DNA of 64,000 bases, from assembly GCA_002763265.1 (NCBI GenBank), contig PEZQ01000006.1, forward strand, positions 94,141-158,140, written 5' to 3'. Every line of letters begins with the position of its first letter. Within the stretch, counting starts at the first letter, position 1. The stretch comes from an archaeon CG10_big_fil_rev_8_21_14_0_10_43_11. Lineage in GTDB: Archaea > Nanobdellota > Nanobdellia > PEZQ01. A program made the translations under genes and the position numbers. The notes under the pieces are model-generated. The model was not told the DNA's origin. It searched no databases and saw only the letters and a list, made by a program, of their open reading frames with translations. Below, in pieces: positions 9,011 through 50,586 of this stretch.

Positions 9011-9017
9011 TAATACA

Positions 9018-36521: not shown

Positions 36522-38239
36522 TGTTGGTTTTCATTGCAGCGATACAATGTTTTTCCTTCCACACACACGTCATCGTAACAGTCACTATCAGAACAGTCCG
36601 TACCGCCCGTGCCATCATTGTCAACGCCATCATAACAAATTTGTTCTGTGCACACGCCTTGTACTGATGAACAAATAGCGCCAGTGCCGCATGAAGCCCC
36701 ACCACAATTCGGGTCAGCGCAATCAATAAGCCCATCTTTGTCATCATCCACACCATTAACGCAGTTTGATTCAGGAGGAAGCGCAGTAGCAATTTGTGAG
36801 ATAGGCTGTTTGCTTCCCGGAATAGTAAAACTGCGCTTGTCTGTTGCCATAATCGGCGCAATGTCGCTTGTTCTGATAACGCCCACGCTACCGAGGTGTG
36901 TTGATTCAAAGATTTTTGCATCAAAAGGCAATTCGGTGATGGTGATAGTTGCTGAGTCAAACCACCACGCGTAATCAGGCGTGTTTTCAAGATTGCCAAA
37001 AGAAGCATAAATCGAGGAGATGCTGCCAGCGTAATCAAGATAGGTAAAGTCTTTTTCTGTGGTTCGAGAAACAAGCGCATGGGTGGTTTCTAAATAATTG
37101 CACAGGTACGCGGGCAGAGGAGTTGCAGAATAAAAGTTACACGCGCAATTCACATTTCCTCCGCCACACGTGTTTTCAAGCGTGTTAAACTCGCAGGTGT
37201 TTTTATCACCAATAACTTCTGCGCCTTTAATGCCAAACGCCCATTTGACCGGCGTGCTCAGATATTTGACCGTGCTAATATCAGCACTGCCAAGACCCAC
37301 GCGCAAGTCAGTAAACACAACAGAATCGCCAGGCACAAGGTTTGAGTTTTGTTGTGGAATAAAATACACTACAGTATCAACCCCTGCGCGCACGGGTTGT
37401 GTGATGTCGAGTATAATCGTGTTTCCTTTATCCTGATTGAATGACTGGCACATAACGGTCTCACCAGCGCGTGTGACGTGCACATGTTTTCCAGTCATGC
37501 ATGAGTCACAGGATGCATCATTTGTTCCGTCGCACAAGCCAATACGATATTGTTGTGAGCTTTCAATATTAACTGAACCAATACTTACCACAAAACTAAA
37601 GCCGTTTCGAAACGAGGGTACGCGCACGCTAAGCCGTCCGTTAAGAACAGCCCAGTTAGAATATGGTGAGAGCGGGATAGTTGCAGGATATGATTCAAAC
37701 ACATACTCATCTTCATAGCGAAACCGCGCACCATCCCAATAAAATAGTAGTTCGGGTGTTGTTGCTTGTGCGTCATCAAGAAATGTTGTGTGCACATATG
37801 ATTCTTCAACAGAAAACACGTCCCTGCATTGCCCGGGGCATTCTGCAAACGCGCGGGGAAGTGAGCAGTAGTCGCCTTTGCATTTGCACACGTTTGCGTA
37901 TGTGACACTTGATGCTTGTGAATAACAGATATAAAAGTTTTCAAATGAGTCGCAGGTCGTATCAGAACTGCACGTCCCTGCAAAGCAGTCCGCACAGGTT
38001 TGGTCATTTTCAGTTATCGCACAAATCGTGTTGTAGTCGCATTGTGTGCAGTCTTGTGAGCATGTTTGCGGGTTTTCATTGTATTCACACACGCCGTTTC
38101 CGCACGAATTTGAAAGCGCGCATTGCGCTCCTGACTCGCCGCTTGTACACCACCCGTCTGTTGATGAAAAGAGCGCGTGCGTTCCTGAAATGCTTACGAG
38201 TAAGCCAAGAACAGTGAGGACAAGCAGGACGGGTTTCAT
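36476..38239 (-). CDS. 587-aa secreted Cys-rich protein with C-terminal C.DG.D.D.DG..DC repeats
   Basis: Sec signal peptide; CVNGVDDDKDGLIDCADPNCG and CYDGVDNDGTGGTDCSDSDC repeats. Confidence 0.5.
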   Translation of the reverse strand: MKPVLLVLTVLGLLVSISGTHALFSSTDGWCTSGESGAQCALSNSCGNGVCEYNENPQTCSQDCTQCDYNTICAITENDQTCADCFAGTCSSDTTCDSFENFYICYSQASSVTYANVCKCKGDYCSLPRAFAECPGQCRDVFSVEESYVHTTFLDDAQATTPELLFYWDGARFRYEDEYVFESYPATIPLSPYSNWAVLNGRLSVRVPSFRNGFSFVVSIGSVNIESSQQYRIGLCDGTNDASCDSCMTGKHVHVTRAGETVMCQSFNQDKGNTIILDITQPVRAGVDTVVYFIPQQNSNLVPGDSVVFTDLRVGLGSADISTVKYLSTPVKWAFGIKGAEVIGDKNTCEFNTLENTCGGGNVNCACNFYSATPLPAYLCNYLETTHALVSRTTEKDFTYLDYAGSISSIYASFGNLENTPDYAWWFDSATITITELPFDAKIFESTHLGSVGVIRTSDIAPIMATDKRSFTIPGSKQPISQIATALPPESNCVNGVDDDKDGLIDCADPNCGGASCGTGAICSSVQGVCTEQICYDGVDNDGTGGTDCSDSDCYDDVCVEGKTLYRCNENQQCVFSTQKGGGAGSE

Positions 38240-41001
38240 TATTGTTTCACCATCACTCCATTATTGCATCGGTAGGTTGCGTCATACAGGTTCGCACTCC
38301 ACGTGTCTCCTGCATCGCACATCTTGCACTGGCCGCTTCCTGATGAGAAATCACAATACCCCGCAAGCCCGTCTGAAAAACCATTCGGGTCACAGTAACG
38401 GTCGTCACTTATGCAGGACTGACCATCAACGCCTCGCAAGACCCATTGCGTTAAACCTTCTTTTTCAACGCAATAGAGCGTGGCGTTTTGGGTTGTTGTT
38501 ATGGTTCTGCCAATGCCAAACACGCTTGTGCACTCGTTGCAAGATTCAGTGTTCTTAACGCACGCACTTCGAAGCCCGTTTGTAGCAAGATTTGAATCGC
38601 ATACCTGATTGTCAACCATTCCAGTATCGGTGCACGCTGTTTCTGGTGGTGCGAGGATTTCAACCCATCCTTGAGATGGTGTGCATTCATGTTCAGTGTC
38701 AGTGCTGTCAAACAGGAATTGCCCTTGCAGTGAACCCGTACAGTGGGTGCACACGCTATTTTGAGTTTGTGGCTGGTACACGCAAATGCTGTCTTGGCCG
38801 CGTGTTGCAAGGTCAACATCGCAATCACTGTTTTTCGTGCAAGAAGCGCCATTTGGTGCAAGAAGCGCAGCCTCATTGAGCTGTGTTTGAAGCAGGTCAT
38901 AAACAGAGAGCCAGTTTGTTAGCAGATTTCTTCTTTCAAGCTCGTTTACGTCAGTTTTCCAGAACAAGCGCGTAATGCAGGTTTCAAGCATTATTTCAAC
39001 GCGGCCAGGGTCTCTGAGCTCTTGGGCAGGGTCAACTTGGCTTCCTGTGTAACACCCGCAAGGGTCGCTTGGTTTTACGCACACGCCGCGCACAACATCG
39101 CGAAATGTTTGGTCAGCAAAGCTTCTGCTATCACTTACTGCACCATTCTGGCACGACGTGCACGCGGTTCGCACGAGTTGGTAGTTGAGGGTTTCTCCTG
39201 CATCAACACTCAGTTGTGATTTGTCCTCATCTGCAAAATGCAGGGTAAAACCCTGATATATCATGTTTTGATTTTGTTGTGTATTAATTGAGTCAAGCAC
39301 AAGCGTGTTAATTGTATCTTCAAAGCACGCGAACGGAGGGTTTTGCGCGTTTTGCCTGTCTTGTATGTGATACGAGTTGCAGCGATTGTTTTGGATGGTG
39401 CACGTGGTTTGCACGCTTTGAGGAATAACGTCTGATGTCCATACCTCGCCTGATTCTTTTGCCTGAGTCCAGGACGCAAGGTTACACGTTTTTGTTGGGG
39501 GCTCGTAACGAATAGTACAGCAGGCGTCATCCTTGTACGCAAGCGGTTCGTTTGGGTTACAGGTATTGCTTGCCCGAAGCAAATACCACTTCCATCGCGT
39601 TGCTTCTGACTCGCCAAAGAGTATTTCTTGTGAGGGAATTTCAACCATGTTCCCGTCAAGTGCTCTTCCTAACGTTTGAGGGTACCAACCCACGTGCGCG
39701 CATTCCAAATCGCTAGAAGAAACAGTAAGCAATCCATTCTCATCAGTACAGGTTTTTCCTGCAGGACATTCCCAGTCATCGCACGCGCATACAAATCGTT
39801 TGTCAGTAGGGATATTTTCTTCTTTTGGACAGTCAATCTCGCACGTATCTTTTGGCGTGAAGCATCCGGGCGTGTTTGAAAGCTGCGGGTTCATGCACAC
39901 AAAAAAGCAGCCATTCATAACCCCGTCAATCTGGCACGTGTTTGGGTTACACCCGCTTGCTTCTGCCATAAATGTGCAATAAAGTGCACGAAGAGAATAT
40001 TCATCAGATGATTCAAGATAACTGAGCGCAAGTTGTGTTTCAGTGTCAAACGTGGTATCGCCTGCAATAGTTGATTCGCACTCATTTTGCTGGCAGTTTT
40101 GTGCAAGAAGAATATCTCCGCTAATCGTGCGGTACGGTTCAAGGGCTTGTTCGACATAGGTATGGTACGCATTTGTGTTGACAAAGCTTTGCACGCTTCG
40201 GTAGAGGCGGGAAAAAGGCGTGGTGACCTCGCTTGAAACAATAACATCAAATTCATATGTGAGCAGGGGTTTATTTACTTGTGAAACAGGAACATCTCCA
40301 TAATCAAAACTGATACCACCTTGCGCGCTTGCAACGCGCCAGTCTGCAACAAACGAGTCTGAGCCTGCAGTGAGCCCTTTTACAATAAGGTCATAGGCAA
40401 GGTCAAGTGCAATGTTTGCGGTTTGTTTAAGATACGCAATAACACCGGTTGGTTTTTGGTAGAAGTCTTGTGCAAGGTTAAGAAAATTTTCTTTAACAAA
40501 ATCAAAAGGAGGATAATCAATGCAAGTAATATCCCTGCATGTCCCGTTTGGACAGTCTTTGACAAAGTTTTGTCCATAGTACTGCGAATCAGTATCATAG
40601 CGAAGCGAATAGTACGGCACGTCTTTTTCAGGCACAAAACGTGTCTCAACGGTTTTTTTGCCGCACGCGTACGTTAGCTCTCCAGCAGGACTCGTTGCAG
40701 TATCACTGTATCCTGTCTCTCCAGGAGCAAGCCGTGTTGCTTTTTCAAAAGAAAGACCAAAGCCACCGCGTGATGCAATGTAAAAGATTGAGCGGTCCAT
40801 CACGTAGTTTCGTTCCTGTTGCAAAAGAAGTTTGACTGTTTCTGCTTGCGAGACCGCGTTGAGTACTGCTTCTTTATAGTTTGGAACCCCGCTTGTACTT
40901 GAAAGCCGAAAAGCAAACGTTCCCATGGCGTATCCAAGTATGATTGCAATAGCAAGGGTAGTGACTGCTGATGCAATGATTTGCCCGCGTCGCGACATCA
41001 A
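38239..41001 (-). CDS. 920-aa giant pilin-like / adhesin-like protein with class III signal peptide
   Basis: MMSRRG|QIIASAVTTLAIAIILG N-terminus; ~50 Cys in the body. Confidence 0.5.
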   Translation of the reverse strand: MMSRRGQIIASAVTTLAIAIILGYAMGTFAFRLSSTSGVPNYKEAVLNAVSQAETVKLLLQQERNYVMDRSIFYIASRGGFGLSFEKATRLAPGETGYSDTATSPAGELTYACGKKTVETRFVPEKDVPYYSLRYDTDSQYYGQNFVKDCPNGTCRDITCIDYPPFDFVKENFLNLAQDFYQKPTGVIAYLKQTANIALDLAYDLIVKGLTAGSDSFVADWRVASAQGGISFDYGDVPVSQVNKPLLTYEFDVIVSSEVTTPFSRLYRSVQSFVNTNAYHTYVEQALEPYRTISGDILLAQNCQQNECESTIAGDTTFDTETQLALSYLESSDEYSLRALYCTFMAEASGCNPNTCQIDGVMNGCFFVCMNPQLSNTPGCFTPKDTCEIDCPKEENIPTDKRFVCACDDWECPAGKTCTDENGLLTVSSSDLECAHVGWYPQTLGRALDGNMVEIPSQEILFGESEATRWKWYLLRASNTCNPNEPLAYKDDACCTIRYEPPTKTCNLASWTQAKESGEVWTSDVIPQSVQTTCTIQNNRCNSYHIQDRQNAQNPPFACFEDTINTLVLDSINTQQNQNMIYQGFTLHFADEDKSQLSVDAGETLNYQLVRTACTSCQNGAVSDSRSFADQTFRDVVRGVCVKPSDPCGCYTGSQVDPAQELRDPGRVEIMLETCITRLFWKTDVNELERRNLLTNWLSVYDLLQTQLNEAALLAPNGASCTKNSDCDVDLATRGQDSICVYQPQTQNSVCTHCTGSLQGQFLFDSTDTEHECTPSQGWVEILAPPETACTDTGMVDNQVCDSNLATNGLRSACVKNTESCNECTSVFGIGRTITTTQNATLYCVEKEGLTQWVLRGVDGQSCISDDRYCDPNGFSDGLAGYCDFSSGSGQCKMCDAGDTWSANLYDATYRCNNGVMVKQ

Positions 41002-41073
41002 GACGTTTAAACTCCCCTGTTTTTATGTGCTACTCATAGTGAAGGTGTTCTGTTAATATAAGATTTCTTAAAG

Positions 41074-41805
41074 TCAAGATGCGCAGCATTGAAAACCAGT
41101 TCCGCAGCTTGGTTCAAGCACGCTCACACCCTCATCACAGGACGGCCTGCACATCCCGCCCGCGCTGTTGCACGCGCGTGCATCTCCGCCCCCAAGAAAC
41201 AAACAGCATGAAAGAGATGCGTCATCGCAGTAGTTTGCATTCTTTCCTAGTTGATATTCAAAATTGCCGCACTGTGGTTTACATTCCCCGCTTTTTTGAT
41301 TTTCGCAAAACGTGATTTTGTCTTGTCCAATTTGCACAAATATTACATCATACACACCGCTTCCGCCTATGGTTTTTGGATGGTAAATAGTTGAATTACA
41401 CTGCATTATTACTTGTCGTATGCCCAAATCACGCAGGCAGGGCACAACTTCGCTTTCGGTTCCAGAACATATGCCAATATAGAGGTCTTCAGACTCAAAT
41501 GCGCGAAGCGCATCTTGAGAGAATCCAAATTCGCGTTCAAGCGTATCAATATTATAGAATTGTATGAGTTGATTTGCAGACCTACTATCAGGAAGGTCGC
41601 TTCGCACTGAATAATCGGTTCCTACAATATTAAACAATAGATTTGAACACATCGCAGCAGTGCGCGCTTGTTCAAGCGAGAGAACACCTTGAAGGGTGAA
41701 TTCACCAATAACAAATTCAGTTACAAGAATGCCGCCAAGAGCAAGAATGATATTAAACAATATTGCAAGGCTGCCAATGAGAAGCGCTCCTTTTTTGTCT
41801 ATCAT
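41074..41805 (-). CDS. 243-aa Cys-rich protein with class III signal peptide
   Basis: MIDKKG|ALLIGSLAILFNIILAL. Confidence 0.5.
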   Translation of the reverse strand: MIDKKGALLIGSLAILFNIILALGGILVTEFVIGEFTLQGVLSLEQARTAAMCSNLLFNIVGTDYSVRSDLPDSRSANQLIQFYNIDTLEREFGFSQDALRAFESEDLYIGICSGTESEVVPCLRDLGIRQVIMQCNSTIYHPKTIGGSGVYDVIFVQIGQDKITFCENQKSGECKPQCGNFEYQLGKNANYCDDASLSCCLFLGGGDARACNSAGGMCRPSCDEGVSVLEPSCGTGFQCCAS

Positions 41806-42926
41806 CCTCGTACGCGTTCCTCCACAACTATGTAGCCATTTGCTGATTTATGCAGTCTCATATAATCAATTGATAAACCACCAGAATATTCTGAAGCCGG
41901 CAGCACTGAGAACATGTAGTAATCGCCTTGGTGGATAAGCAGGGGTGCGTCAGTGAGTTGATATGAATCAGGCAGCGCGCTACAACCAAGCGCGTCTAGC
42001 GGGGTACAGTCAAGAACACTTACTTCATTTTCGCACGCTTGCCATGCAAAGAATTGTCGTGTTGCCCCGTCAAGAAGCTGAAGGATTGCGCGCTTGCACC
42101 CCGGACCAGTCAGGTCTGCAGTGCACCCCGCGATATCGCGCGCACGCGCCGTACCAAGATAGGTGTAGGCAAGCTGATCTTCAAATGTGAGCGTGTTTAT
42201 GCTAATGGGATTTGCGTATTCAGCATAGACGTGGTCTTTAATGTCTTGCAGGAATTGGTTGTAACCGCCGCGTCCTGAAACATCATGACACCCATTGTAC
42301 TTGATAAGACACATGCACGTGCGGTCAGCGCATGCTTCAATAAGTTTTGTGTCGCGAACCAAAGCTAACCCCTGCGCAATGCCTTGCGTGTTTCGAGAGT
42401 CAACAATAATAGTGCCGCTTTGCGCGCTTGCAGCAGGGTTGAGCACAGTTTTTCCGCGCGGTATGCAGCATGCTTGCAAACAGTCTTGACCTTCAGCACA
42501 GCAGGTGAGTGAAGGATACCATGTGTTTGGCGCGCATTCAGTTGAGCACAGACCGTCATCACAGCTCATGCATTGGCCGCCATTTTGCACGCATGAGAGC
42601 CCATAGTCAAAGGTTTCATACCCTTTATTTTTGCCATAGGCGGTTGTTGTGCTGTACACAGCATTGTCTGTGCTTGTTGCAAGATAGAATTGGGTAATGC
42701 TATGCTGTGGGGGGAGCGCAAAATCAAACAAATCGCCTGCAAGGTCTGCTGACTTGCACGCATCCAAAACCGTATCTTTAAAAGAATCAAAACCATCTTG
42801 TGCTGAACCACCGGTTCCCAGGCCAAACCCAAGAAGGGGACCAATCACAATAAGCAAAAGCACGAGCGAGATTGCACCAATAAACACGCCAAGAATGATT
42901 TCAAGCGAGACAAATCCGCGTTTCAT
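41802..42926 (-). CDS. 374-aa minor-pilin/tip-adhesin-like protein with bacterial-style prepilin N-terminus
   Basis: MKRG|FVSLEIILGVFIGAI with Glu at +5; ATGA overlap on both sides. Confidence 0.5.
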   Translation of the reverse strand: MKRGFVSLEIILGVFIGAISLVLLLIVIGPLLGFGLGTGGSAQDGFDSFKDTVLDACKSADLAGDLFDFALPPQHSITQFYLATSTDNAVYSTTTAYGKNKGYETFDYGLSCVQNGGQCMSCDDGLCSTECAPNTWYPSLTCCAEGQDCLQACCIPRGKTVLNPAASAQSGTIIVDSRNTQGIAQGLALVRDTKLIEACADRTCMCLIKYNGCHDVSGRGGYNQFLQDIKDHVYAEYANPISINTLTFEDQLAYTYLGTARARDIAGCTADLTGPGCKRAILQLLDGATRQFFAWQACENEVSVLDCTPLDALGCSALPDSYQLTDAPLLIHQGDYYMFSVLPASEYSGGLSIDYMRLHKSANGYIVVEERVRG

Positions 42927-43885
42927 GTTCGCACAAACACCTCAACGTTATCTATGCGCAGCACTTCAGCATCGCGTGAAATACTAATGCGGTCAAATTT
43001 TTGTGCAGTTAGGGGAAACGCGAGAATTGCGCGGTTGCTTTTTTCAGTAAGAAGGGTTTCATTTGTGCACGCGCCCCTATTTTTAAGAGATTCACAAGCA
43101 ACAATGCTGTATTGGTCTTTGCACTCATAATTTTCAAGAAATGTTTTTGTAAAGGATTTAATCTGGTCAAGCGGGTTTGCACTGCTTGCAAGTGCTATAG
43201 CAGAATAATCATGAAGGTTGTTGAGAATAGCATTTCGCCTGCTTTGTTCTGACGTATACACATACTGAGACAAGGCGGGTTTGTATGCTAATACGCCTTG
43301 GCTGAATATGGTTTGATAGAGTCTGGTTCCTCCTTGCGTGCAGCACACGCCTGAATCACAGGCCCCTTCACGCGCAATTGATTCAACAAGTTGTATTTCT
43401 GTGCTGCCTCTGCATGCAATTGAATTAACATCGCACTCATCTTGTCTGTAACTCTCCTCAGTTCTGCATTGGTTTTTGCAGCTTCCTTCAATTGTGTTGC
43501 AATCCCGCGTAATACAGCTTCCCACATACACAAGACACAGGCAGGTTGAATCAGTGCAATCCTCTTCAAGTGCGCTAATGTTTGCAAACGCTTCCTGCGT
43601 GTTCTTGTTTGAGCTTGTAAAATTAGTTTGGGATTTATCAAAATCTGCAAATTGAAAAATGTGCCAGTTTTCACTCATTTCAAGACCAGGAATGCTTGTT
43701 GATGCGTCAGAACTGCAGGCGTGGGGGAGTTTAAGCGTAAATGTGGCAAAGTTTGCTTGTTCAGAAACCGTTGCTGCAGTGCCAACAGTCACGCTGATGA
43801 TTGGCGCAAGAAAGGGAAGTGAAACAGCAACAATAATAATAGCAATCAAAATAGCAACAATCGTGTCTACTCCCCGTTTATTCAT
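42923..43885 (-). CDS. ~320-aa Cys-rich protein with class III signal peptide
   Basis: MNKRG|VDTIVAILIAIIIVAV (internal Met chosen as start). Confidence 0.45.
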   Translation of the reverse strand: MNKRGVDTIVAILIAIIIVAVSLPFLAPIISVTVGTAATVSEQANFATFTLKLPHACSSDASTSIPGLEMSENWHIFQFADFDKSQTNFTSSNKNTQEAFANISALEEDCTDSTCLCLVYVGSCITRDCNTIEGSCKNQCRTEESYRQDECDVNSIACRGSTEIQLVESIAREGACDSGVCCTQGGTRLYQTIFSQGVLAYKPALSQYVYTSEQSRRNAILNNLHDYSAIALASSANPLDQIKSFTKTFLENYECKDQYSIVACESLKNRGACTNETLLTEKSNRAILAFPLTAQKFDRISISRDAEVLRIDNVEVFVRT

Positions 43886-43920
43886 ATTGAGAATTAGGCA
43901 TACTGCGCTTATTAAATTTC

Positions 43921-44184
43921 TCAAATCAAAACAAGCCGCGGCGCAAAAACAAATGGCTGAGAATACGCGCTGCTTTGGGTTGGCACACCAATGCCCAAGC
44001 GGTCTTCAAGCTGTGATTCTGCTTCATTAAGTGAAGAATTGCCAATGCCAATCATGCGCTCAAGCATAGCACCAATCTGGTCGCGCTGCGTAATAAAAAG
44101 CAGGATAAGGGCTAAAAGCACAAAAATAACTAGCAGTATTGCTGCGATTTGTGAAAAGGTAAATCCTTTTTTAGTCATCATCAA
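43921..44184 (-). CDS. short pilin (KG|FTFSQ class III signal)
   Basis: MMMTKKG|FTFSQIAAILLVIFVLLALILLF. Confidence 0.55.
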   Translation of the reverse strand: MMMTKKGFTFSQIAAILLVIFVLLALILLFITQRDQIGAMLERMIGIGNSSLNEAESQLEDRLGIGVPTQSSAYSQPFVFAPRLVLI

Positions 44185-44187
44185 CCA

Positions 44188-44463
44188 CTATACACAACAA
44201 TGAGGCGAAGCAACAGCACAATTCCATTGCCCAATATCAGTTTCTCCAGCAGCACACGCTGCTTTGCACGCACCACCTTGACCCGTACATGAAGTGAGAA
44301 GTCCTGATACGTTGCCAACGCCTTGCTCAACGCCTTTTGAGATACTTGAGACCGAGCTTCCTGCTCCCTGAATTTGTGTGGCAAACAACACAATCACGGC
44401 AATAAGCCCAAGCACGACAAGAAGAATGACTGCAAGTTGTTGAAATGTAAAACCCTTTTGCAT
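44188..44463 (-). CDS. short pilin paralog (KG|FTFQQ), Cys-knot C-terminus
   Basis: MQKG|FTFQQLAVILLVVLGLIAV ... C..GQGGACKAACAAG...CAVASPHCC. Confidence 0.6.
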   Translation of the reverse strand: MQKGFTFQQLAVILLVVLGLIAVIVLFATQIQGAGSSVSSISKGVEQGVGNVSGLLTSCTGQGGACKAACAAGETDIGQWNCAVASPHCCV

Positions 44464-44496
44464 ACCTCAATTAGAAGCACTTTGCTATTTTAAAGT

Positions 44497-44781
44497 TTAT
44501 TTAGGAACGCAACATTTTGCAGCAGTGCTTGGACAATCACTCGTTCCCGTGTCTGTTTGAGAAGCACTGCATGACGCTTTGCACTCGCCTCCTGCAAGGT
44601 CGCATACAAGTCCTGCCACACTTTCACCTGCTGCTTGCGACCCTCCGGTTGCTTGTTCGCCAACATCAGTAATGCTTCCCCCTGCTTGTCTAAACTGAGT
44701 GGCAGCAAGCACAACTGACACAACAAGACCTAAAATAACCAGAAGCAATACTGCCATTTGCGTAAAGGTAAAGCCCTTTTG
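44497..44781 (-). CDS. short pilin paralog (KG|FTFTQ)
   Basis: MQKG|FTFTQMAVLLLVILGLVVSV ... CDLAGGECKASCSAS...CPSTAAKCC. Confidence 0.6.
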   Translation of the reverse strand, partial: QKGFTFTQMAVLLLVILGLVVSVVLAATQFRQAGGSITDVGEQATGGSQAAGESVAGLVCDLAGGECKASCSASQTDTGTSDCPSTAAKCCVPK

Positions 44782-44837
44782 CATGACTAGTGTTAGAACA
44801 ATCAAATATTATAAAGGTAATTAAAAAAAAGAAGAGG

Positions 44838-45275
44838 TTATGCGCACGTATTGTCTAGTTGGCACGTTCCTGATTCGCATTCTGCATCGTCAGCACAGGT
44901 TGCACCGGTTGGGAGAAGTGACGCACCAGTAGCTGCTTCTTTGCAACAGTATATTGCGCCACTATCCTGACAGCCAATGTCTAAACCCGAGTCAGCATTT
45001 GCTAAATCAGTGGTCGTGCTTCCGCCTACATTGAGGTATACATCGCACGCATCAGCGCATTGCACGCCGCCAATAGTTCTGCACGCGAGTCCTGCGCTTG
45101 CAGTAACTGCTGCTTGTGTTCCTGATGTTGCTTGACTGCCAAGTTCTGAAATGCTTCCCGCACTTGCGCCAAGCTGAGTGCTTGCAAGAATAACGCCAAC
45201 AGTAAGACCAAGAATGACCAGAATAAGTGTTGCCATCTGGGCAAAAGTGAAACCCTTTCTTGACATGGTATTCAT
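44838..45275 (-). CDS. pilin paralog (RKG|FTFAQ), longer Cys-rich head
   Basis: MNTMSRKG|FTFAQMATLILVILGLTVGV; start ambiguous (ATG at 45266, 45275 or 45293). Confidence 0.55.
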   Translation of the reverse strand: MNTMSRKGFTFAQMATLILVILGLTVGVILASTQLGASAGSISELGSQATSGTQAAVTASAGLACRTIGGVQCADACDVYLNVGGSTTTDLANADSGLDIGCQDSGAIYCCKEAATGASLLPTGATCADDAECESGTCQLDNTCA

Positions 45276-45318
45276 ACTAGTGGCTCTTTGCATATTTATA
45301 GTTTATCTGTAAACATGG

Positions 45319-45600
45319 TTATTTTCTGCAGCAAACAAAGTTTTCCCCACTGCACGGCAGGTCAAGGGTGTTTTCAGGCGTGCACGATTCTCTGCATTCA
45401 CCGCCAAAATTCCCGCATTGAATGCTTTGTTCTGCGGATTGGGCTCCTGTTTCAGCACCTTGTGTTGCTGCGCTTTGCAAGTCTGAAATGCTTCCCGCAC
45501 TTGCAGCAAATTGAGTGCTTGCAAGAATAATAGCAACAGTAAGACCAAGAATAACAAGAATGAGCACGGCCATTTGTTCAAAGGTAAATCCTTTTTTCAT
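45319..45600 (-). CDS. short pilin paralog (KKG|FTFEQ)
   Basis: MKKG|FTFEQMAVLILVILGLTVAI ... CGNFGGECRESC...CSGENFVCC. Confidence 0.6.
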   Translation of the reverse strand: MKKGFTFEQMAVLILVILGLTVAIILASTQFAASAGSISDLQSAATQGAETGAQSAEQSIQCGNFGGECRESCTPENTLDLPCSGENFVCCRK

Positions 45601-45609
45601 TTTTTCTCT

Positions 45610-46050
45610 TTAACCACCAACCGTTCCGCCGCCAACCTGACCAAAACTACCCCCACTTAAACATTCTTCTTGTCCAATGCTTGTGCGCCTTCCTCCTGAG
45701 AGCGTGACTTGACACGCGGTTCCTCCAGTAACAATAGTGTCATAACAGTGGTCTTCATCATTAGGATTTCCGTCTTCTTTCAGACTAAACACCGTCGTGC
45801 AGTACGGCAACTCTCCGGCGTTTTGCGGGGTTGCAAGCAGGTTATCCATTGACAAACAATATTGTGTGCATTGGCTTCTTATTGCCGTGATTTCCACATT
45901 GCTTGTTGCACCAGCACTGCTTTGAGCAAGTGATGATGAAAGCCGCGAGATGCCTCCAGTAAAAAGAATAATAATTGTTGAGAGAACAAGCACTGCCAAA
46001 ATGATTTTGACAATGAAATTAAGACTCAAACCCTGCCCCCTCGTGTTCAT
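45610..46050 (-). CDS. 146-aa pilin-like protein (RG|QGLS class III-like signal)
   Basis: MNTRG|QGLSLNFIVKIILAVLVLSTIIILF; Gly-rich C-terminus. Confidence 0.45.
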   Translation of the reverse strand: MNTRGQGLSLNFIVKIILAVLVLSTIIILFTGGISRLSSSLAQSSAGATSNVEITAIRSQCTQYCLSMDNLLATPQNAGELPYCTTVFSLKEDGNPNDEDHCYDTIVTGGTACQVTLSGGRRTSIGQEECLSGGSFGQVGGGTVGG

Positions 46051-46103
46051 GTGTATACTTAAGCCTAAAGGAAGTTATAAATTGTTCGCTAACACACTCC
46101 CGC

Positions 46104-46292
46104 TTAAATCAGGCTGCCCGCGCCCTGCTGTATTGTTTCATTGACAATGTCAACAATGCGTCCTGCCTGACTTGCCTGGCTTTGTTGTGCAACAAACGCA
46201 AGAACAAGCAAAGTAAGCAAAACAAACAGTCCAAGCAGGATGAGCGCGATAGTGTTAATATCAACTGCTTTTTTGGTTAGTTTTGGCAACAA
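46104..46292 (-). CDS. 62-aa single-TM protein
   Basis: basic N-term then TM helix; 16-nt overlap with downstream gene. Confidence 0.35.
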   Translation of the reverse strand: MLPKLTKKAVDINTIALILLGLFVLLTLLVLAFVAQQSQASQAGRIVDIVNETIQQGAGSLI

Positions 46293-46942
46293 AACATATC
46301 CCTCCCATCTCGTGTTTGCGGACAGTACGTATCAAGATTTATTCCATCCTGGTCTTGTGGAACGCGAAATGGGTAGCTTACCGGGCACGTGATGGTGCTG
46401 CGCTGGTCGCCAGAGAGACCAAGACACCCCAAACATCCTTGCACGCACGCGTGCGTGCTTTCAACACCGACCCCAGTAACGTAATCAAAGGTATCCTCTG
46501 AACCAAGACCAACGCGTCTGTCACACGCGCGTCCAAGCGTGCCGCAATCTGCGGGACACGCATCAGGCGCGCACACACTTACCCCATCAAACTCGCATTG
46601 GTTGTCATAGCGCGTTTTTGCACAGCAATAGGCATTATCATCGCTTCGACAGCCCTTAACCGGGATGCGCATGGGGTACGTGCTTGGACACCCATCCCAC
46701 AAGGCTGAGCGGGGGTTTGCATCAGTGTTTGGTCCTATGCAGGTCATGTACGAGTTGTCAGTTGTTCCGCATTCTGATTGCTGGCCAACAATTTCTCTGC
46801 CAAGGTCAGCAACCCTGCCAAGTTGTTTGTTAGCATCAGTAAAAAAAAGAAAGTAGAGCATAATCAACGCGGCAATAATCACAAAAGGCAGGAGAAAAGT
46901 AAATATCGGTCCTTCAATAAAAAAGCTTGCTTTTCTTTTCAT
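46277..46942 (-). CDS. 221-aa N-anchored Cys-rich (18 Cys) protein
   Basis: MKRKASFFIEGPIFTFLLPFVIIAALIM anchor; CC pairs. Confidence 0.45.
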   Translation of the reverse strand: MKRKASFFIEGPIFTFLLPFVIIAALIMLYFLFFTDANKQLGRVADLGREIVGQQSECGTTDNSYMTCIGPNTDANPRSALWDGCPSTYPMRIPVKGCRSDDNAYCCAKTRYDNQCEFDGVSVCAPDACPADCGTLGRACDRRVGLGSEDTFDYVTGVGVESTHACVQGCLGCLGLSGDQRSTITCPVSYPFRVPQDQDGINLDTYCPQTRDGRDMFCCQN

Positions 46943-47085
46943 AGTATGTTTGCTCCTGCATCAACAAGGTCTTGTATGAGGTCAGGAAGGTTTCTTCCAA
47001 GCGTAATAACAAGCAGTACAAACACGACAAATAAGAAAATAAGAAACACCCATACCAGTATTTGGTTTGTCACTCCCCGCTTCAT
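46939..47085 (-). CDS. 48-aa pilin-like micro-protein (KRG|VTNQ..), absent from ORF track
   Basis: MKRGVTNQILVWVFLIFLFVVFVLLVITLGRNLPDLIQDLVDAGANIL translated by hand; its TGA stop overlaps the ATG of the downstream gene (ATGA). Confidence 0.45.
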   Translation of the reverse strand: MKRGVTNQILVWVFLIFLFVVFVLLVITLGRNLPDLIQDLVDAGANIL

Positions 47086-47119
47086 GCACTAGTAGGGGGT
47101 AGTGTGCACATTTATAGTT

Positions 47120-48937
47120 TTATGTGCATGGTGAAAAATCCTGCGCCCCGCATTCTGCGTTATGGTATTGACAGTACCCAAATGCTGGTGAAATGTCTCC
47201 CGCTCGATTTTTTCCGCCTTCATAGGTGAGCCCAAGCGTCAGGTCCGAACACGCGCGCCCGCCTTCCCACAGTACGCGCGCATCTTCTGCGCTGCTGATT
47301 GGTCCAAATGAATCTTCAACAATACATGCAAGCAAACGGTCATTACGCGGCTTTCCGCCGGTAATCAGGTTGAATATTGACGGGTCTGCGACAACTGCTG
47401 CAGCAATGTTTGAACCAAACATAAGCCCATTACAATCGTCCCATGCTGCAGATGAGGCGCGCGCCTGAAAAATGTTGCCCATAAGGATTTCAGCTCCAAC
47501 ATCTTCATCCTGGTATTCGGTTGTCCAGTCCCAGTAACCCAGTTTAAATGAGCCGCTTGTAAGCGTAAGCGGATTGCATTGGTTATCACATGCGTTTGTT
47601 GAATCTTCCCAGGGCCAGCACATGGGGTTTGCATTATCATCATCGCCAAATGCTTCGGCAAAATCACCGGAAAGAAGGCTGCACGGGCTTGTGCGAAACT
47701 GGTCAGGGGTAAGCGTATCATTATACAAGTAAAACGGGAAAATATCTGCGCGCTCCTGCGCGTCTTGCATACGCGCTCCTGCGTACGCGTCAACAATAGC
47801 CCCTGAAGGAGATGAGCCAATGTTTGAAAGAAGTTGTCCAAATTCAGCTCCAGAAAGTTCAATAACCATATCAATTGCAATGCTTGAATCTGAAGGGATG
47901 CTTCCTAACGTGCGCGTGGTTCCTGCTGCAGTAACTTTGGTATTGCCACCTTTGTAGTCTGTGGTAAAAAGAACCGTAGGATAATCAGCAGCCTCACCAA
48001 TTCCCAGGTTTGCGAGTTGCGCTAAAAGCGCGTCTAGACCGGCTACAGGATAGAGGCGTGCAATAAGGTTATTTGTTACTTCCTGACATCCACCTTCACC
48101 AACACTGCCACCAACCTGACAATTCACATAATTAGCAGGGCAGGGTGAGCCGTCATTGAAGCTTTTACTGCAGTACATGATTTGGGTGCGCATGTTTTGA
48201 GGCAGGCATAGCGCGGGGGTTACTTCTTTTGTTTGTGAACCAACTGAAAGCGTACAGTCAAGGTCTTGAATGTCTTGTCCGTTAAGCCATACAAGTTTTC
48301 CTTCTGACGCGCTTTGCGAGTCTTTAATACGCGTGGTGTAAAACGCGCTTGCGTACAAATAATCTGAAAGGGTCATTTGAGAAATGCTTTTAGTTAAAAA
48401 TAACGCAGGACTGCGCGAGCTTCCCGCAGACCAGACAAGCGCAGAAGGCACGGATTCTAAAAATGTATCACCAGTGATGCGCGCACTCTGAGAAAAATCG
48501 TATTCTGTTGCAGCACACAGTGCAGGGTTTCCTGCAGCATACAGTGGTTTGAGCGCGCTTCCCGCATCATACATGCCCCAGCAAAGCGAGCCATACCGTC
48601 CGGCCCACTGCCCAAATTCAAGGGAGTTTGTGAATGTGCCATGAGAAAAGATAGGACAAATTGTTTCTATCGGGATAAGTGAAGCCACGCGTTGCGCGCC
48701 TCCAAGCGCGCGACCAAAAAGGTTAAACCAGCCTTGCGGGCTTAACAGGTCACCGCCCGTGACTTGGCTGCCAATGGTTCCGCGAATAGTTGCAAAATCA
48801 TTGCAAATGTCTGCACGAAACTCATCAAGACCTGATACGCGATTGACAAGCAGTACAAATGCTGAAACGGTGAGAATTGCGAGAATAATAATTGATATAA
48901 TGAATGTTCCGATTCGCTCTCTGTTCTCTTCTGCCAT
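47120..48937 (-). CDS. 605-aa N-anchored extracellular protein
   Basis: basic N-term plus TM helix (RERIGTFIISIIILAILTV), 20+ Cys, no known domain recognised. Confidence 0.45.
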   Translation of the reverse strand: MAEENRERIGTFIISIIILAILTVSAFVLLVNRVSGLDEFRADICNDFATIRGTIGSQVTGGDLLSPQGWFNLFGRALGGAQRVASLIPIETICPIFSHGTFTNSLEFGQWAGRYGSLCWGMYDAGSALKPLYAAGNPALCAATEYDFSQSARITGDTFLESVPSALVWSAGSSRSPALFLTKSISQMTLSDYLYASAFYTTRIKDSQSASEGKLVWLNGQDIQDLDCTLSVGSQTKEVTPALCLPQNMRTQIMYCSKSFNDGSPCPANYVNCQVGGSVGEGGCQEVTNNLIARLYPVAGLDALLAQLANLGIGEAADYPTVLFTTDYKGGNTKVTAAGTTRTLGSIPSDSSIAIDMVIELSGAEFGQLLSNIGSSPSGAIVDAYAGARMQDAQERADIFPFYLYNDTLTPDQFRTSPCSLLSGDFAEAFGDDDNANPMCWPWEDSTNACDNQCNPLTLTSGSFKLGYWDWTTEYQDEDVGAEILMGNIFQARASSAAWDDCNGLMFGSNIAAAVVADPSIFNLITGGKPRNDRLLACIVEDSFGPISSAEDARVLWEGGRACSDLTLGLTYEGGKNRAGDISPAFGYCQYHNAECGAQDFSPCT

Positions 48938-48960
48938 ACGTGTTCTAGTCCTCTTTATTA

Positions 48961-50427
48961 TTAGTCAAACCAAGCGTCAATTGCCTCTTGCAGGCGCGAG
49001 TTTGATGCCTTTTTGTTTTGTTCATCACGCACGCATAAGAGTGCGCCGTCAGTTGTGGCATCATCATAAATGTCTTGTGAAGGAATCACATACGTGCTAA
49101 ATTCCTCAATCTGTATCACATCTGCAACGTTTAGACCTTCCCAGGTGGTGCCGCACAATTCCCATGCTTTTGATTCGGGATTGTCCTGAAATCCGCCATA
49201 CCCATCGTGGTAGCCAACAAGAAAACTGCCGCGCGAAAGCGTTGTGTCTAAAATTTCATCAAGTGCAACACCATAATTACACGTGTAGTCTGCATTGTCA
49301 AAGAAGTTTGCAACATCAAAACCAGCACGAACTGCCGAACTAAAGAGGGGTCCAACAATAGGAATTGCATCGCTCCATGCAGTAATAGAATCGCCAGGAC
49401 TCACCTGAAAGGGGTCATACCTAAATATGATTGTTTCTGCTTCTGCTGCTACTTGAGGAATCACAGGCAGGCACAGACGAGATGCAACAGGAAGCACTGA
49501 GCTCTCATCAAGTGAAAAACCCGGTGTTTGTGCGTCTTTAAGCAATAACTCTGCTGCCTTGTCGCGCCACGAATTCGCGCTGGTAAGCGCGTCTAGTTTG
49601 GCGCTATCCCCTGATGCAACACAGCCAAGAAGCGTGGTGCCACACACCCATAGTGATGTTCCACCCATTTGCTCAACATAAGTTGTTTCGCGCCCGGTCA
49701 TGCGCGCGTGGCGCATATAATCAGTAATGTGGCGCAGTGAGAGCTCGGTTTCTTGGCCGCCATCTTGTGTAAAATCATAGCCGCGCGACGAGCACGTGAA
49801 TGGTTTTGAGACACGCGCGCTTGTAAGAGGGTTTCCTGTTCCATACCCTAGTTTTGCAAAGCAGTTAAACGCATCAAGAGCAAGGCCGTCAAGCTCGTTG
49901 AGCGCGCCTTTGAGCGCATGGGCTTCACTCTGTGTGCCGCCCATAACATAATCATAATAGGTCACAAACAAATCCGCAGGAGAGTGAACCCCTGAAGGGT
50001 CTTGTTTTGCAACAGCAAGATTTCTGCCTTGTGCAGTATACACAATAAATGATGTGTCTGCGTTGTAGGAGAATTGTACGTTGCTTGCGTCGCTAAACGT
50101 GCGTGTTTGCGTAGTTCCTGCAAGCTCACCGTTCACTTCATTTTTTGAAAACGTCACAATTTCCCAGTCTTCACTTGTTGTGTCAGGAAGTATTTGAGTC
50201 TCGCACAGGAAGGGAAGCGCGTTCATTACGGTGCCCGTAAAAAAACTTGTTTCAAAACGTGAGCCAAGCAGCTGGGATGCATAGTTTCGAACATTAATGC
50301 TTGTTTTGCAAAAAATGTTTTGTGCAGGAGTAAACACGCTGAGAAGTCCGGGTATGACAACAATAAGAAGCAGTGTGAACACAATAAACAACACGATAAG
50401 AGATTGAACATTTTGTTTTGATGCCAT
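48961..50427 (-). CDS. 488-aa N-anchored extracellular protein
   Basis: N-terminal TM helix; few Cys; no known domain recognised. Confidence 0.45.
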   Translation of the reverse strand: MASKQNVQSLIVLFIVFTLLLIVVIPGLLSVFTPAQNIFCKTSINVRNYASQLLGSRFETSFFTGTVMNALPFLCETQILPDTTSEDWEIVTFSKNEVNGELAGTTQTRTFSDASNVQFSYNADTSFIVYTAQGRNLAVAKQDPSGVHSPADLFVTYYDYVMGGTQSEAHALKGALNELDGLALDAFNCFAKLGYGTGNPLTSARVSKPFTCSSRGYDFTQDGGQETELSLRHITDYMRHARMTGRETTYVEQMGGTSLWVCGTTLLGCVASGDSAKLDALTSANSWRDKAAELLLKDAQTPGFSLDESSVLPVASRLCLPVIPQVAAEAETIIFRYDPFQVSPGDSITAWSDAIPIVGPLFSSAVRAGFDVANFFDNADYTCNYGVALDEILDTTLSRGSFLVGYHDGYGGFQDNPESKAWELCGTTWEGLNVADVIQIEEFSTYVIPSQDIYDDATTDGALLCVRDEQNKKASNSRLQEAIDAWFD

Positions 50428-50433
50428 AGTAGT

Positions 50434-50586
50434 TTATGAAAATATGTTAACAAGCCGGAGTGCATCATCTGCAAACGAGCCGAGCACACCAGTTTGCCAC
50501 ATAATAACAAAGCCAATAATAACCCCAATCACAATAAGCGTGATAAGAATGCCGGTTACAAGGTCAAATTCCGCGTGCGTGTTCAT
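50434..50586 (-). CDS. 50-aa single-TM micro-protein, absent from ORF track
   Basis: MNTHAEFDLVTGILITLIVIGVIIGFVIMWQTGVLGSFADDALRLVNIFS; its ATG overlaps the TGA stop of the upstream 819-aa gene (ATGA). Confidence 0.4.
   Translation of the reverse strand: MNTHAEFDLVTGILITLIVIGVIIGFVIMWQTGVLGSFADDALRLVNIFS

Follow-up and report, generated by a model that had tools for sequence, protein, structure and literature searches.

Archaeal class III pilins, such as PilA1-6 of Haloferax volcanii, begin with a basic leader that carries K or R at position -2 and G or A at position -1, directly followed by the H-domain (PMC4371748); K or R at -2 is the archaeal-specific criterion for class III signals (PMC4371748, PMC3387779), and the archaeal peptidase PibD is tolerant at +1 and +3 (PMC4371748). 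Genes for a platform protein and a FlaI/TadA-type ATPase accompany those of such pilins, and the PilA paralogs have near-identical H-domains and differ in their C-terminal parts (PMC4371748). Bacterial type IV pilins are defined by Glu or Asp at +5 (PMC4371748), and those of the type IVa/T2SS kind combine Gly-1, Phe+1 (or Met/Leu) and Thr+2 with a hydrophobic helix, tandem small paralogs serving as minor pilins. The Tad/Flp and archaeal Epd short pilins are tiny, helix-dominated subunits, served by an ATPase of the TadA/FlaI clade. In β-defensins, six cysteines follow the spacing C-x(4-8)-C-x(3-5)-C-x(9-13)-C-x(4-7)-CC, with a Gly before the second. The trans-defensins, in which the disulfides pair as C1-C5, C2-C4 and C3-C6, are stated to have arisen in animals only, and in bacteria only cis-defensins are on record (PMC7203481).

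The locus described here shares features with each of these. It lies in a window of 64 kb (the whole stretch of DNA analysed) from an archaeal genome (its AlaRS passes the archaeal equivalog TIGR03683 and its L10/P0 is of the archaeal type), whose nearest named relatives are Nanoarchaeota/Woesearchaeota. Within an operon of ~30 kb for an archaeal type IV filament, in this deep-branching DPANN lineage, six small ORFs follow each other in tandem, as the initial annotation had described and as the ORF list and an alignment agree; no strand had been given, and all six are on the minus strand. Five of them (43921-45600) open with M-x-[KR]-G/FTF-x-Q (the slash marking the cleavage site here and below) and a hydrophobic helix; the start previously proposed is seen in all five, as a short basic leader and G/FTF-x-Q-(M/L/I)-A with a hydrophobic stretch of about 25 residues behind it, and the MNTRG/QGLS start of the sixth gene is likewise present. 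The five are paralogs that encode pilin-like proteins with N-termini of the prepilin (class III) type, and they stand in tandem in an archaeal type IV filament locus, listed here with the sixth gene:

45610..46050, minus strand: sixth gene, 146 aa, class III-like start MNTRG/QGLSLNF, 6 Cys, of a family distinct from W1-W5
45319..45600, minus strand: W1, 93 aa, MKKG/FTFEQ helix, S/A/G/Q-rich linker, 6-Cys head C-x6-C-x3-C-x9-C-x6-CC
44838..45275 (or 45266), minus strand: W2, 142-145 aa, MSRKG/FTFAQ, head with expanded third loop C-x7-C-x3-C-x24-C-x7-CC and a 4-Cys C-terminal tail (10 Cys in total)
44497..44784, minus strand: W3, 95 aa, MQKG/FTFTQ, head C-x6-C-x3-C-x11-C-x6-CC
44188..44463, minus strand: W4, 91 aa, MQKG/FTFQQ, head C-x6-C-x3-C-x11-C-x6-CC
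43921..44178 (or 44184), minus strand: W5, 85 aa, MTKKG/FTFSQ, Cys-free, of a headless subfamily with TQRDQI after the helix

For W3 the gene stands, and its upper coordinate moves from 44781, which missed the ATG, to 44784. The heptamer TTTATAA occurs 31 nt upstream of the W3 ATG (44809-44815) and again 31 nt upstream of the sixth-gene ATG (46075-46081). W5 is identical to P0014, deposited as 'hypothetical protein COT72_03310 [archaeon CG10_big_fil_rev_8_21_14_0_10_43_11]', and its relatives are P0016, P0017 and P0051.

The array recurs with identical gene order in at least three related assemblies: L001 (NCBI GCA_053534155.1), L004 (Logan SRR22388187) and the fragment L005. Orthologs are L004:9676-9954 and P0002 for W1 (the latter with 66% identity in the alignment and 67% by BLASTP), and, in L001, 10497-10862 for W2 (68%), 11181-11474 for W3 (63%) and 12026-12328 for W4 (51%); in L001 (9366-9824), L004 (9263-9679) and L005 (253-690) the sixth gene, too, lies immediately upstream of the array. 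For the array genes, pN (0.06-0.57) is far below pS (0.5-0.9), being lower in the stem (0.06-0.23) than in the head (0.32-0.57), which shows purifying selection. With an order common to three assemblies and pN well under pS, the array is far beyond chance.

The duplications that gave rise to it had been called recent. Positional orthologs, however, are 42-68% identical and paralogs only 23-48%, so that each paralog is nearer to its counterpart elsewhere than to its own neighbours, and synonymous sites are saturated; judged by these divergences, the duplications are old and the orthologs predate the splits between the genomes. Since each paralog is kept as a positional ortholog across genomes, the five would have distinct, non-redundant roles, for example as a minor-pilin set, rather than being interchangeable copies. 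The family as a whole comprises 46 representatives among 1.84 billion proteins, all with the same small architecture; where context or naming is known (four related assemblies and one short JGI contig) it is always the locus of this lineage, and the single source-named member is labelled archaeon, so that the family appears to be confined to this lineage.

The N-terminal motif was read in the initial annotation as a bacterial hallmark. Gly-1 and Phe+1, each present in five of five window paralogs, are indeed as in bacterial pilins, and the resemblance to the bacterial pattern G/FTLIE...G14 extends to Thr+2, to the polar nature of +5 and to a Gly close to +15. Across the 46 family members, however, -2 is K or R in 45, -1 is G or A in all (Gly in 38, Ala in 8), +1 is F in 40, +3 is F in 44 and +5 is Q in 42, with the Glu that bacterial pilins carry at +5 found in one; the leaders mostly have 3-5 residues and at least 16 of 18 residues in the hydrophobic stretch are apolar, as in archaeal class III signals. 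Only one of the five paralogs had been said to retain Glu at +5. This numbering was shifted by one position: the residue that varies (E/Q/T/A/S) is at +4, and with cleavage after Gly, +5 is Gln in all five and Glu in none. The relaxed selection on the salt bridge deduced from the mis-numbered position therefore falls away, the true +5 Gln being almost constant.

Profile searches also separate the N-termini from bacterial pilins: neither Pfam N_methyl (PF07963; E<=1) nor TIGR02532 in NCBIfam (E<=10) matches them, the N-terminal profile retrieves no bacterial pilin among its PDB matches, and GspH/GspG of NCBIfam appear at E 0.014-0.15 with 12-15 bits, against cutoffs of 80-89. The proteins likewise lack the profile membership of described archaeal pilin families, no archaeal pilin or archaellin family of Pfam or NCBIfam matching at E<=1-10, and the sole Flp-type match is a weak one of Flp1_like to W5 (43921-44184; E 0.021). 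Nor is Phe at +1 atypical for the locus, as had been supposed: neighbouring class III proteins have Q, V, A, I or F there, and the G/Q, G/V, G/A and G/I starts make Phe one of several accepted residues. The starts reported for a second locus in the window (locus 1) are as described, KG/IEG at 9018-9512 and KG/VEG at 9509-9910. A G/F-T start at an archaeal prepilin site is thus not evidence of bacterial origin, tempting as that mis-reading is; the full Phe-Thr-Phe-x-Gln start is specific to the array family and differs from that of PilA1-6.

The surrounding operon resembles those of archaeal class III pilins in its machinery:

57737..60022, minus strand: filament assembly ATPase at the operon head, 761 aa, Pfam T2SSE (E 1.4e-18)
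55684..57810, minus strand: presumed platform protein, polytopic membrane protein directly after the ATPase, ORF coordinates overlapping
38239..55682, minus strand: remainder of the operon body, with more class III-like proteins and large Cys-rich ones, syntenic with L001/L004
54093-55682, minus strand: class III-like protein, G/QLKL, from a regex scan
46939..47085, minus strand: 48-aa mini-protein MKRG/VTNQIL, helix only, class III-like, kept in L001 (8344-8490) and L004 (8295-8438)
42923-43888, minus strand: class III-like protein, G/VDTI, from a regex scan
41802-42926, minus strand: class III-like protein, G/FVSLE, from a regex scan
41074..41805, minus strand: 243-aa class III-like protein MIDKKG/ALLIG, its C-terminal end formed by two tandem copies of the 6-Cys module
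38239-40998, minus strand: class III-like protein, G/QIIA, from a regex scan

The ATPase scores best in NCBIfam with archaellum FlaI (2.9e-38), followed by the TadA family (2e-31), and reaches GspE/PilB/PilT families at 2.5e-7 to 5.7e-7; as the FlaI/TadA scores are far stronger, a partner ATPase of the PilB/GspE type was ruled out. The presumed platform protein has a counterpart in locus 1, encoded next after the ATPase there (7181-9010, plus strand), to which it is homologous along its entire length (E 3e-26). No family of Pfam (T2SSF included), NCBIfam or PDB matches it, and its position and topology suggest the platform role. The pairing of a FlaI/TadA-clade ATPase with a polytopic platform-like partner is that of archaeal type IV pilin systems. 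No Peptidase_A24 gene is found in the 64-kb window, in ~4 kb past its low-coordinate end or in the ~5 kb to the other contig end. The regex scan gives at least nine further class III-like proteins in the operon, and MopE-type Cys motifs occur in 50583-53042. The 48-aa mini-protein is a candidate Flp/Epd-like subunit; it and W5 recall the Tad/Flp and Epd pilins in being helix-only, whereas four of the five array paralogs carry a disulfide-knotted domain and none has a Flp G/xxxxEY-type motif.

A knot of four to six cysteines had been assigned to all five paralogs, in a head of 60-110 residues. It is present in four, W5 (43921-44178) being without cysteine, and it spans 30-35 residues after a linker of about 30. 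The spacings are 6-3-9-6-0 in W1 and 6-3-11-6-0 in W3 and W4, these three with GGxC, and 7-3-24-7-0 in W2 with its expanded loop; as tabulated for 44 family members, the heads have the six-Cys framework of β-defensins. The same framework, C-x6-C-x3/4-C-x9-11-C-x5/6-CC, occurs in hBD-1/2/3, CpoBD13, AvBD3, the platypus DLPs and helianthamide, which share with the heads Gly-Gly-x before Cys2, often I-G before Cys4 and, as predicted for the heads, a short helix with an antiparallel sheet. The initial annotation saw the cysteine pattern and did not recognise this framework.

In the AF2 model of W1 (pLDDT 75.6 overall, 82-85 in the head; 85.2 for the head modelled alone), residues 7-46 are predicted to form a single long N-terminal helix, the linker to be partly disordered, and the head to have a short helix preceding three strands in the full-length model and two in the head-only one. 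The top 19 Foldseek matches of the full model in the PDB, and nearly all of the top 27 of the head alone, are β-defensin-fold proteins (TM 0.5-0.76, rmsd 1.6-2.7 Å), with E-values that are not significant (0.23-3.8). A profile of the heads run against all PDB sequences finds the β-defensin fold in 11 of 11 matches (best hBD-3, E 0.0022), with all six Cys aligning in register in each of the five alignments given, and hhalign places the heads with β-defensins at Prob 68.9% and P 4.5e-5 (0.3% for an alpha-defensin control). All these statistics are marginal, and the PDB profile E of ~2e-3 has to be read against a control in which the N-terminal profile matched unrelated PsbX helices at E 1e-3, as good a value, so that short, compositionally biased profiles overstate significance; AlphaFold may, moreover, echo a memorised fold from the Cys pattern.

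In a Pfam scan of 48 members, Defensin_beta_2, Defensin_beta and Defensin_big rank first; the β-defensin models (PF00711, PF13841) reach E<=0.1 in six and five members, and P0033 (25.7 vs 21 bits) and P0039 (23.8 vs 22.2) exceed the gathering cutoffs. The window paralogs stay below, W4 with 17.4 bits for Defensin_beta_2 (E 0.006, cutoff 22.2) and W1 and W3 with 12.5-14.5. The heads are predicted to have a β-defensin-like fold, which may reflect either homology to β-defensins or convergence.

Taken together, the array probably encodes lineage-specific archaeal type IV pilin-like subunits of a DPANN filament operon, four of the five with a predicted β-defensin-like disulfide mini-domain. Each precursor would consist of a basic leader of 3-5 residues (M-x-[KR]-[GA]), a hydrophobic helix of ~27 residues whose F-T-F-x-Q-[LM]-A start hardly varies, a Ser/Ala/Gly/Gln-rich linker of ~30 residues, partly disordered in the model, and, in four of the five paralogs, a 30-35-residue three-disulfide mini-domain with the β-defensin Cys framework. 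We infer the cleavage site, filament assembly, disulfide pairing, surface display and binding function as follows: an archaeal aspartyl peptidase of the PibD/FlaK type would cleave after the Gly; the FlaI/TadA-type ATPase and the platform protein would draw the helices out of the membrane to form the bundled core of the filament, one machine serving all paralogs through their common helix; and flexible tethers would display the acidic, disulfide-locked knobs on the surface or at the tip of the filament, where they would serve in adhesion or recognition. The array resembles PilA1-6 in its paralogs with a common helix and differing C-terminal parts; the PilA genes are dispersed, whereas those of the array are clustered within the biosynthesis operon, and where archaeal pilins have a β-sandwich head, the array proteins have a tethered 35-residue disulfide knot. 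Since a long flexible linker with a knob of this size is unlike the solved archaeal pilins, we can only infer incorporation into the filament.

The same features leave some room, though not much, for proteins that are processed as class III precursors and are not polymerised into a long pilus, instead staying anchored in the membrane, forming a short pseudopilus or a bindosome-like surface layer on which the knobs are presented, or serving solely as a priming or tip complex. Archaeal class III signals do occur on non-pilus surface proteins, those of the Sulfolobus bindosome among them (PMC4371748; bioRxiv 10.64898/2026.04.22.720090). The five paralogs, conserved, not interchangeable and fixed in their order, recall minor-pilin sets; the helix-only mini-proteins of the operon (48 and 62 aa) could be the bulk subunit; and major pilins do not typically have a long disordered linker. 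This differs from the pilin-like subunits favoured above in stoichiometry and location only, and the conserved helix would suit packing either way.

Less likely again, the heads could truly belong to the beta-/trans-defensin superfamily, or be its prokaryotic source, and be displayed on the type IV filament of a DPANN episymbiont to engage host envelopes; this would place a defensin-like module on a pilus and be the first case of a trans-defensin-type fold in Archaea. They are archaeal, acidic and carried on a pilin helix, whereas β-defensins are animal, cationic and made with a Sec signal and propeptide.

We consider it improbable that the proteins are secreted or released defensin-like effectors, exported through the type IV machinery to act on host or competitor membranes in the manner of animal big defensins. 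The framework and predicted fold of the heads would suit such a role, and big defensins (horseshoe crab, molluscs, amphioxus) join a hydrophobic N-domain to a β-defensin domain (PMC7203481), with Defensin_big (PF14862) giving weak matches across linker and head that stay below threshold (best 15.7 bits, cutoff 25). The heads are not cationic like membrane-active defensins, however, having net charges of -2, -1, -1 and -5 in the window and a family mean of -2.25 (range -7 to +3); where big defensins have a globular β-α-α-β domain, these proteins have a class III signal and a single transmembrane or filament-core helix at the N-terminus; their genes lie in the midst of structural filament genes; and each array includes one headless paralog.

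Most improbable of all, and largely refuted, is the horizontal acquisition considered in the initial annotation, with bacterial type IVa pilin or T2SS pseudopilin genes decaying at Glu5 after recent tandem duplication: set against the bacterial-looking start and the sub-threshold GspH/GspG matches are a near-constant Gln with no decaying Glu, an obligatory basic -2 residue, the lack of bacterial pilin profile matches and of evidence for a PilD methyltransferase, a FlaI/TadA-type ATPase, a platform protein with a paralog in the other archaeal locus, a family confined to this lineage and orthologs older than the genome splits.

For pilus biology, the pilin-like reading would add a new subunit architecture, in which a helix, a flexible tether and a 35-residue disulfide knot are combined. 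The type IV filaments of DPANN archaea, organisms whose surface appendages presumably attach them to host cells, are poorly characterised and would gain a set of five conserved paralogs. A β-defensin framework in archaea, with some members past Pfam thresholds, would point either to easy convergence or to an older and wider superfamily. The module also extends beyond the array: in an hmmsearch with the head profile, the class III-like protein at 41074..41805 is matched in two stretches (whole-protein E 6e-4), and its ortholog in L001 has one copy.

The tandem array is real, although it was partly mis-described in the initial annotation. All six of its open reading frames lie on the minus strand, with 3-55 nt between genes, and five of them (W1-W5) are pilin-like paralogs (the bar marks cleavage of the class III, prepilin-type signal, and +1 is the first mature residue):

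45610-46050, minus: sixth gene, 146 aa, starting MNTRG|QGLSLNF
45319-45600, minus: W1, starting MKKG|FTFEQMAVLILVILGL
44838-45275 or 45266, minus: W2, starting MSRKG|FTFAQMATL
44497-44784, minus: W3, starting MQKG|FTFTQMAVL
44188-44463, minus: W4, starting MQKG|FTFQQLAVI
43921-44178, minus: W5, starting MTKKG|FTFSQIAAI

W3 had been rightly counted as an array gene, but with an end at 44781 that omits the ATG. Its C-terminal head, like those of W1 and W4, carries six cysteines spaced C-x6-C-x3-C-x9/11-C-x6-CC, with Gly-Gly-x ahead of the second; W2 retains this frame with an expanded third loop and an added four-Cys tail, and W5 has no cysteines, so that the Cys knot ascribed to all five paralogs holds for W1-W4 only. 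The residue originally placed at +5 and read as variable (E/A/T/Q/S) falls at +4 when cleavage follows the Gly, and +5 is Gln in all five. TTTATAA boxes at 44809-44815 (minus) and 46075-46081 (minus), two of just 19 matches across the whole window, precede the ATGs of W3 and the sixth gene, respectively, by exactly 31 nt and suggest internal archaeal promoters whose transcripts would have a short leader or none; a scan for sigma-70 promoters and terminators stayed at background level, and neither Rfam nor a tRNA scan gave a match in the window.

The same array occurs in the same neighbourhood on contigs of related assemblies: L001 (NCBI GCA_053534155.1), L004 (Logan SRR22388187), L005 and one short JGI contig. 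On these contigs a G|Q protein of 138-152 aa is followed by four to six [KR][GA]|FTFxQ genes; in L001 and the JGI contig the array closes with a headless gene, followed by a protein of ~330 aa, and L004 and L005 stop before that point. Each window paralog finds its best match in its positional counterpart in L001 (66, 68, 63, 51 and 42% identity), against 23-48% between paralogs within the window. Synonymous sites are saturated for orthologs and paralogs alike (pS 0.5-0.9, with many infinite dS values), which makes the head-versus-stem dN/dS ratios proposed as a check unreliable and leaves as reportable only the contrast in pN, 0.06-0.23 in the helix versus 0.32-0.57 in the head. Conservation of the array across contigs, the positional matches and the pN/pS pattern together indicate genuine genes subject to purifying selection; the closeness of the paralogs to their positional orthologs and the synonymous saturation place the duplications before the divergence of these genomes, contrary to the initial view of a recent tandem duplication. 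Over the first 40 codons (120 nt after the cleavage codon; W1-W3, 44497-45600, minus), third-position identity is 55-60% among W1, W2 and W3 and 32-45% between these and their L001 orthologs; with 40 sites per pair, this faintly suggests that gene conversion may keep the helix-coding 5' segments of the three genes alike within the genome.

The family is rare. W1 as a query against 5.8 billion proteins found only four relatives and an alignment of 16 sequences 17; when 1.84 billion cluster representatives were searched exhaustively with HMMER, 46 members were obtained at E<=1e-3, one of them spurious. P0047, a protein of 966 aa with seven stretches matched by the pilin profile, was rejected as a false positive of the search, being highly repetitive and probably a spurious translation (FHWEQFAVQVFVHL repeats). 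Scans of species-representative genomes, one using the pilin alignment and the other the adjacent 605-aa protein, gave pattern matches and zero confirmed relatives. That the genome is archaeal, as first annotated, is borne out by an AlaRS that passes the archaeal equivalog TIGR03683 (804.6 bits versus a cutoff of 744.7) and by an archaeal-type L10/P0. W5 is identical to 'hypothetical protein COT72_03310 [archaeon CG10_big_fil_rev_8_21_14_0_10_43_11]', and this one source name and the AlaRS neighbours (two relatives at 71% and 62%, then Nanoarchaeota, Woesearchaeota and Aenigmarchaeota at 47-53%) provide the taxonomic placement. With no confirmed relative in a species-representative genome, the AlaRS and L10 evidence thus points to a sparsely sampled DPANN lineage.

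The N-termini had been read as a bacterial-type motif in an archaeon, under relaxed selection at the salt-bridge position. Among the 46 family members, Lys or Arg occupies -2 in 45 and Gly (38) or Ala (8) occupies -1; these are followed by Phe at +1 in 40, Thr at +2 in 38, Phe at +3 in 44, Glu, Ser or Ala at +4 (17, 13 and 7, respectively), Gln at +5 in 42 (Glu in 1) and Ala at +7 in 44. Charged residues at -2 are confined to archaeal substrates, and Glu or Asp at +5 is a near-universal bacterial feature, acidic residues occurring there in only some archaeal pilins (PMC4371748, PMC3387779); the family thus has the archaeal hallmark and lacks the bacterial one, and a Gln that is near-invariant at +5 contradicts relaxed selection. 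Pfam N_methyl and TIGR02532 did not match the array N-termini even at permissive E-values, and the NCBIfam GspH/GspG N-termini reached 12-15 bits versus cutoffs of 80-89. Against the PDB, the N-terminal profile retrieved no pilin of either domain and only PsbX helices, a control which shows that E-values of ~1e-3 from short, compositionally biased profiles are unreliable. The remaining likeness to the bacterial motif (F1, T2, a polar +5 and Gly near +15) is most readily explained by convergence under common constraints on helix packing. The array genes encode pilin-like subunits of archaeal type and belong to a rare DPANN lineage.

The array lies inside a minus-strand operon that runs from ~60022 to ~30000, and the window holds a second, compact type IV filament locus at 5440-9910 (plus), here called locus 1, which encodes an ATPase, a platform paralog and two class III proteins. 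Genes of both loci discussed here are:

55684-57810, minus: 708-aa polytopic membrane protein, second operon gene
46939-47085, minus: 48-aa helix-only protein, MKRG|VTNQIL
46104-46292, minus: 62-aa helix-only protein, KKA|VDINT
41802-42926, minus: 374-aa protein, MKRG|FVSLE
41074-41805, minus: 243-aa class III-like protein, MIDKKG|ALLIG
5440-7191, plus: TadA/FlaI-type ATPase of locus 1
7181-9010, plus: platform paralog of locus 1

The first operon gene encodes a 761-aa ATPase (Pfam T2SSE) whose best NCBIfam matches are archaellum FlaI and the TadA family, GspE, PilB and PilT being far weaker; this motor and the archaeal N-termini argue against horizontal acquisition of a bacterial system, a possibility raised at the outset. 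Full-length homology (E 3e-26) links the 55684-57810 product with the 7181-9010 protein, whose gene comes after that of the window's second T2SSE ATPase. Both are presumed platform proteins; they match no family in Pfam, NCBIfam or the PDB and may form an undescribed, divergent TadC/FlaJ-like family. At least nine further operon proteins have class III-like starts with a varied +1 residue, among them, on the minus strand, G|QLKL (54093), G|VTNQ (46939, 48 aa), G|QGLS (45610), G|VDTI (42923), G|FVSLE (41802), G|ALLI (41074) and G|QIIA (38239). The class III proteins of locus 1 start KG|IEG and KG|VEG, the former weakly matching Arch_flagellin (E 0.058). The processing enzyme must therefore accept many +1 residues; archaeal PibD is reported to show 'little stringency at +1 and +3' (PMC4371748). 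No prepilin peptidase (Peptidase_A24) was found in the window, in ~4 kb past its low-coordinate end, or in the ~5 kb to the opposite contig end. The 41802-42926 protein, which has Phe in position +1 and Glu in +5, resembles the bacterial G|FxxxE pattern more closely than do the array genes; in L001 the counterpart begins KKG|QGEF, and the pattern is thus not conserved.

The head of these subunits has a beta-defensin-like cysteine framework and predicted fold. W4 matches Pfam Defensin_beta_2 over profile positions 1-30 of 30 (17.4 bits, E 0.006), all window paralogs being sub-threshold; when 48 members were scanned singly, the families with most member matches were Defensin_beta_2 (6), Defensin_beta (5) and Defensin_big (3), and two members exceeded Pfam curated cutoffs (P0033, 25.7 versus 21 for PF00711; P0039, 23.8 versus 22.2 for PF13841). 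An AlphaFold2 model of W1 from a 17-sequence alignment has a long helix (7-46), a low-confidence segment (45-54), a short helix (53-64) and strands at 67-70, 78-82 and 89-92, with a head pLDDT of 82-85 (85.2 for the head modelled alone). In Foldseek searches of the PDB, the 19 top-ranked matches of the full model were all beta-defensins, including crocodile CpoBD13 (prob 0.96, target-normalised TM 0.76, rmsd 1.6 A), AvBD3, hBD-1/2/3, mBD-7/8 and platypus DLP-1, and nearly all of the top 27 for the head alone were beta-defensin-fold proteins. A profile of 24 heads against 177,635 distinct PDB sequences gave 11 matches, all of this fold, among them hBD-3 (E 0.0022), 6mjv (0.0026), DEFB106, hBD-1, helianthamide, a tick carboxypeptidase inhibitor and mBD-7; of five alignments inspected, four have all six cysteines in register and the fifth every cysteine that it covers. 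With hhalign, the heads aligned to six beta-defensins over 33 columns (probability 68.9%, P 4.5e-5; three of the beta-defensin sequences agreed, at least in part, with fragments of the PDB matches), versus 0.3% for alpha-defensins.

All these statistics are marginal (Foldseek E 0.23-3.8, profile E ~2e-3, hhalign below 70%), the profile value is to be weighed against the PsbX control, in which ~1e-3 arises by composition alone with such short profiles, and AlphaFold may recall the fold from cysteine spacing. Defensins, moreover, are cationic, and the head is acidic (net charge -1 to -5 in window paralogs, family mean -2.25). On these grounds we file the head as beta-defensin-like and not as a superfamily member. 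A literature search found no paper that connects pilins with a domain of this kind; what is new is the architecture of the subunit and the beta-defensin-like knob. Were the relationship true, which is improbable, the trans-defensin fold would extend to Archaea, a finding of high value. Two tandem copies of the 6-Cys head module also stand at the C-terminus of the 41074-41805 protein, and one in its L001 ortholog (L001:14578-15195), which marks the module as a mobile building block within the operon.

The array proteins most likely carry class III signal peptides and serve as substrates of the archaeal type IV filament machine whose genes lie upstream. Once inserted through Sec, each would lose its leader of 3-5 residues at G|F to a PibD/FlaK-type peptidase, and the FlaI/TadA-type ATPase and platform protein would draw the helices out of the membrane and bundle them as the core of the filament, where the invariant F1, T2, F3, Q5 and A7 would make subunit contacts; a linker rich in Ser, Ala, Gly and Gln would tether the disulfide-locked, acidic knob at the surface. 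Every paralog has kept its positional ortholog, and the array is closed by a single headless gene; we therefore see W1-W5 as a non-redundant set of minor-pilin-like subunits more readily than as major pilins that could replace one another. The nearest functional parallel is with PilA1-6 of Haloferax, in which the H-domain is common and the C-termini diverge (PMC4371748). The helix-only genes just upstream of the array are alternative candidates for the bulk subunit, possibly Flp/Epd-like; the 48-aa protein is conserved in L001 and L004, the latter also having a similar ORF of ~63 aa (KKG|VDMGT).

Elsewhere in the window, at 15297-16615 (minus), a polytopic membrane protein with several predicted TM helices and an N-terminal 'APCA' motif adjoins a thioredoxin-fold protein that is membrane-anchored and contains WCPFC (AhpC/TSA, Redoxin). 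The pair may be CcdA/ResA-like and serve the many extracytoplasmic Cys-rich proteins; the polytopic protein has no family match, and no profile supports a CcdA-like role for 15297-15965. MopE-type Cys motifs (PF11617) were noted in the set of very large operon proteins at 50583-53042, 33195-36521 and 54093-55682 (all minus), and one class III protein of this set has Asp-rich DxDxDG repeats that resemble thrombospondin type 3 calcium-binding repeats, at an E of only 0.82.
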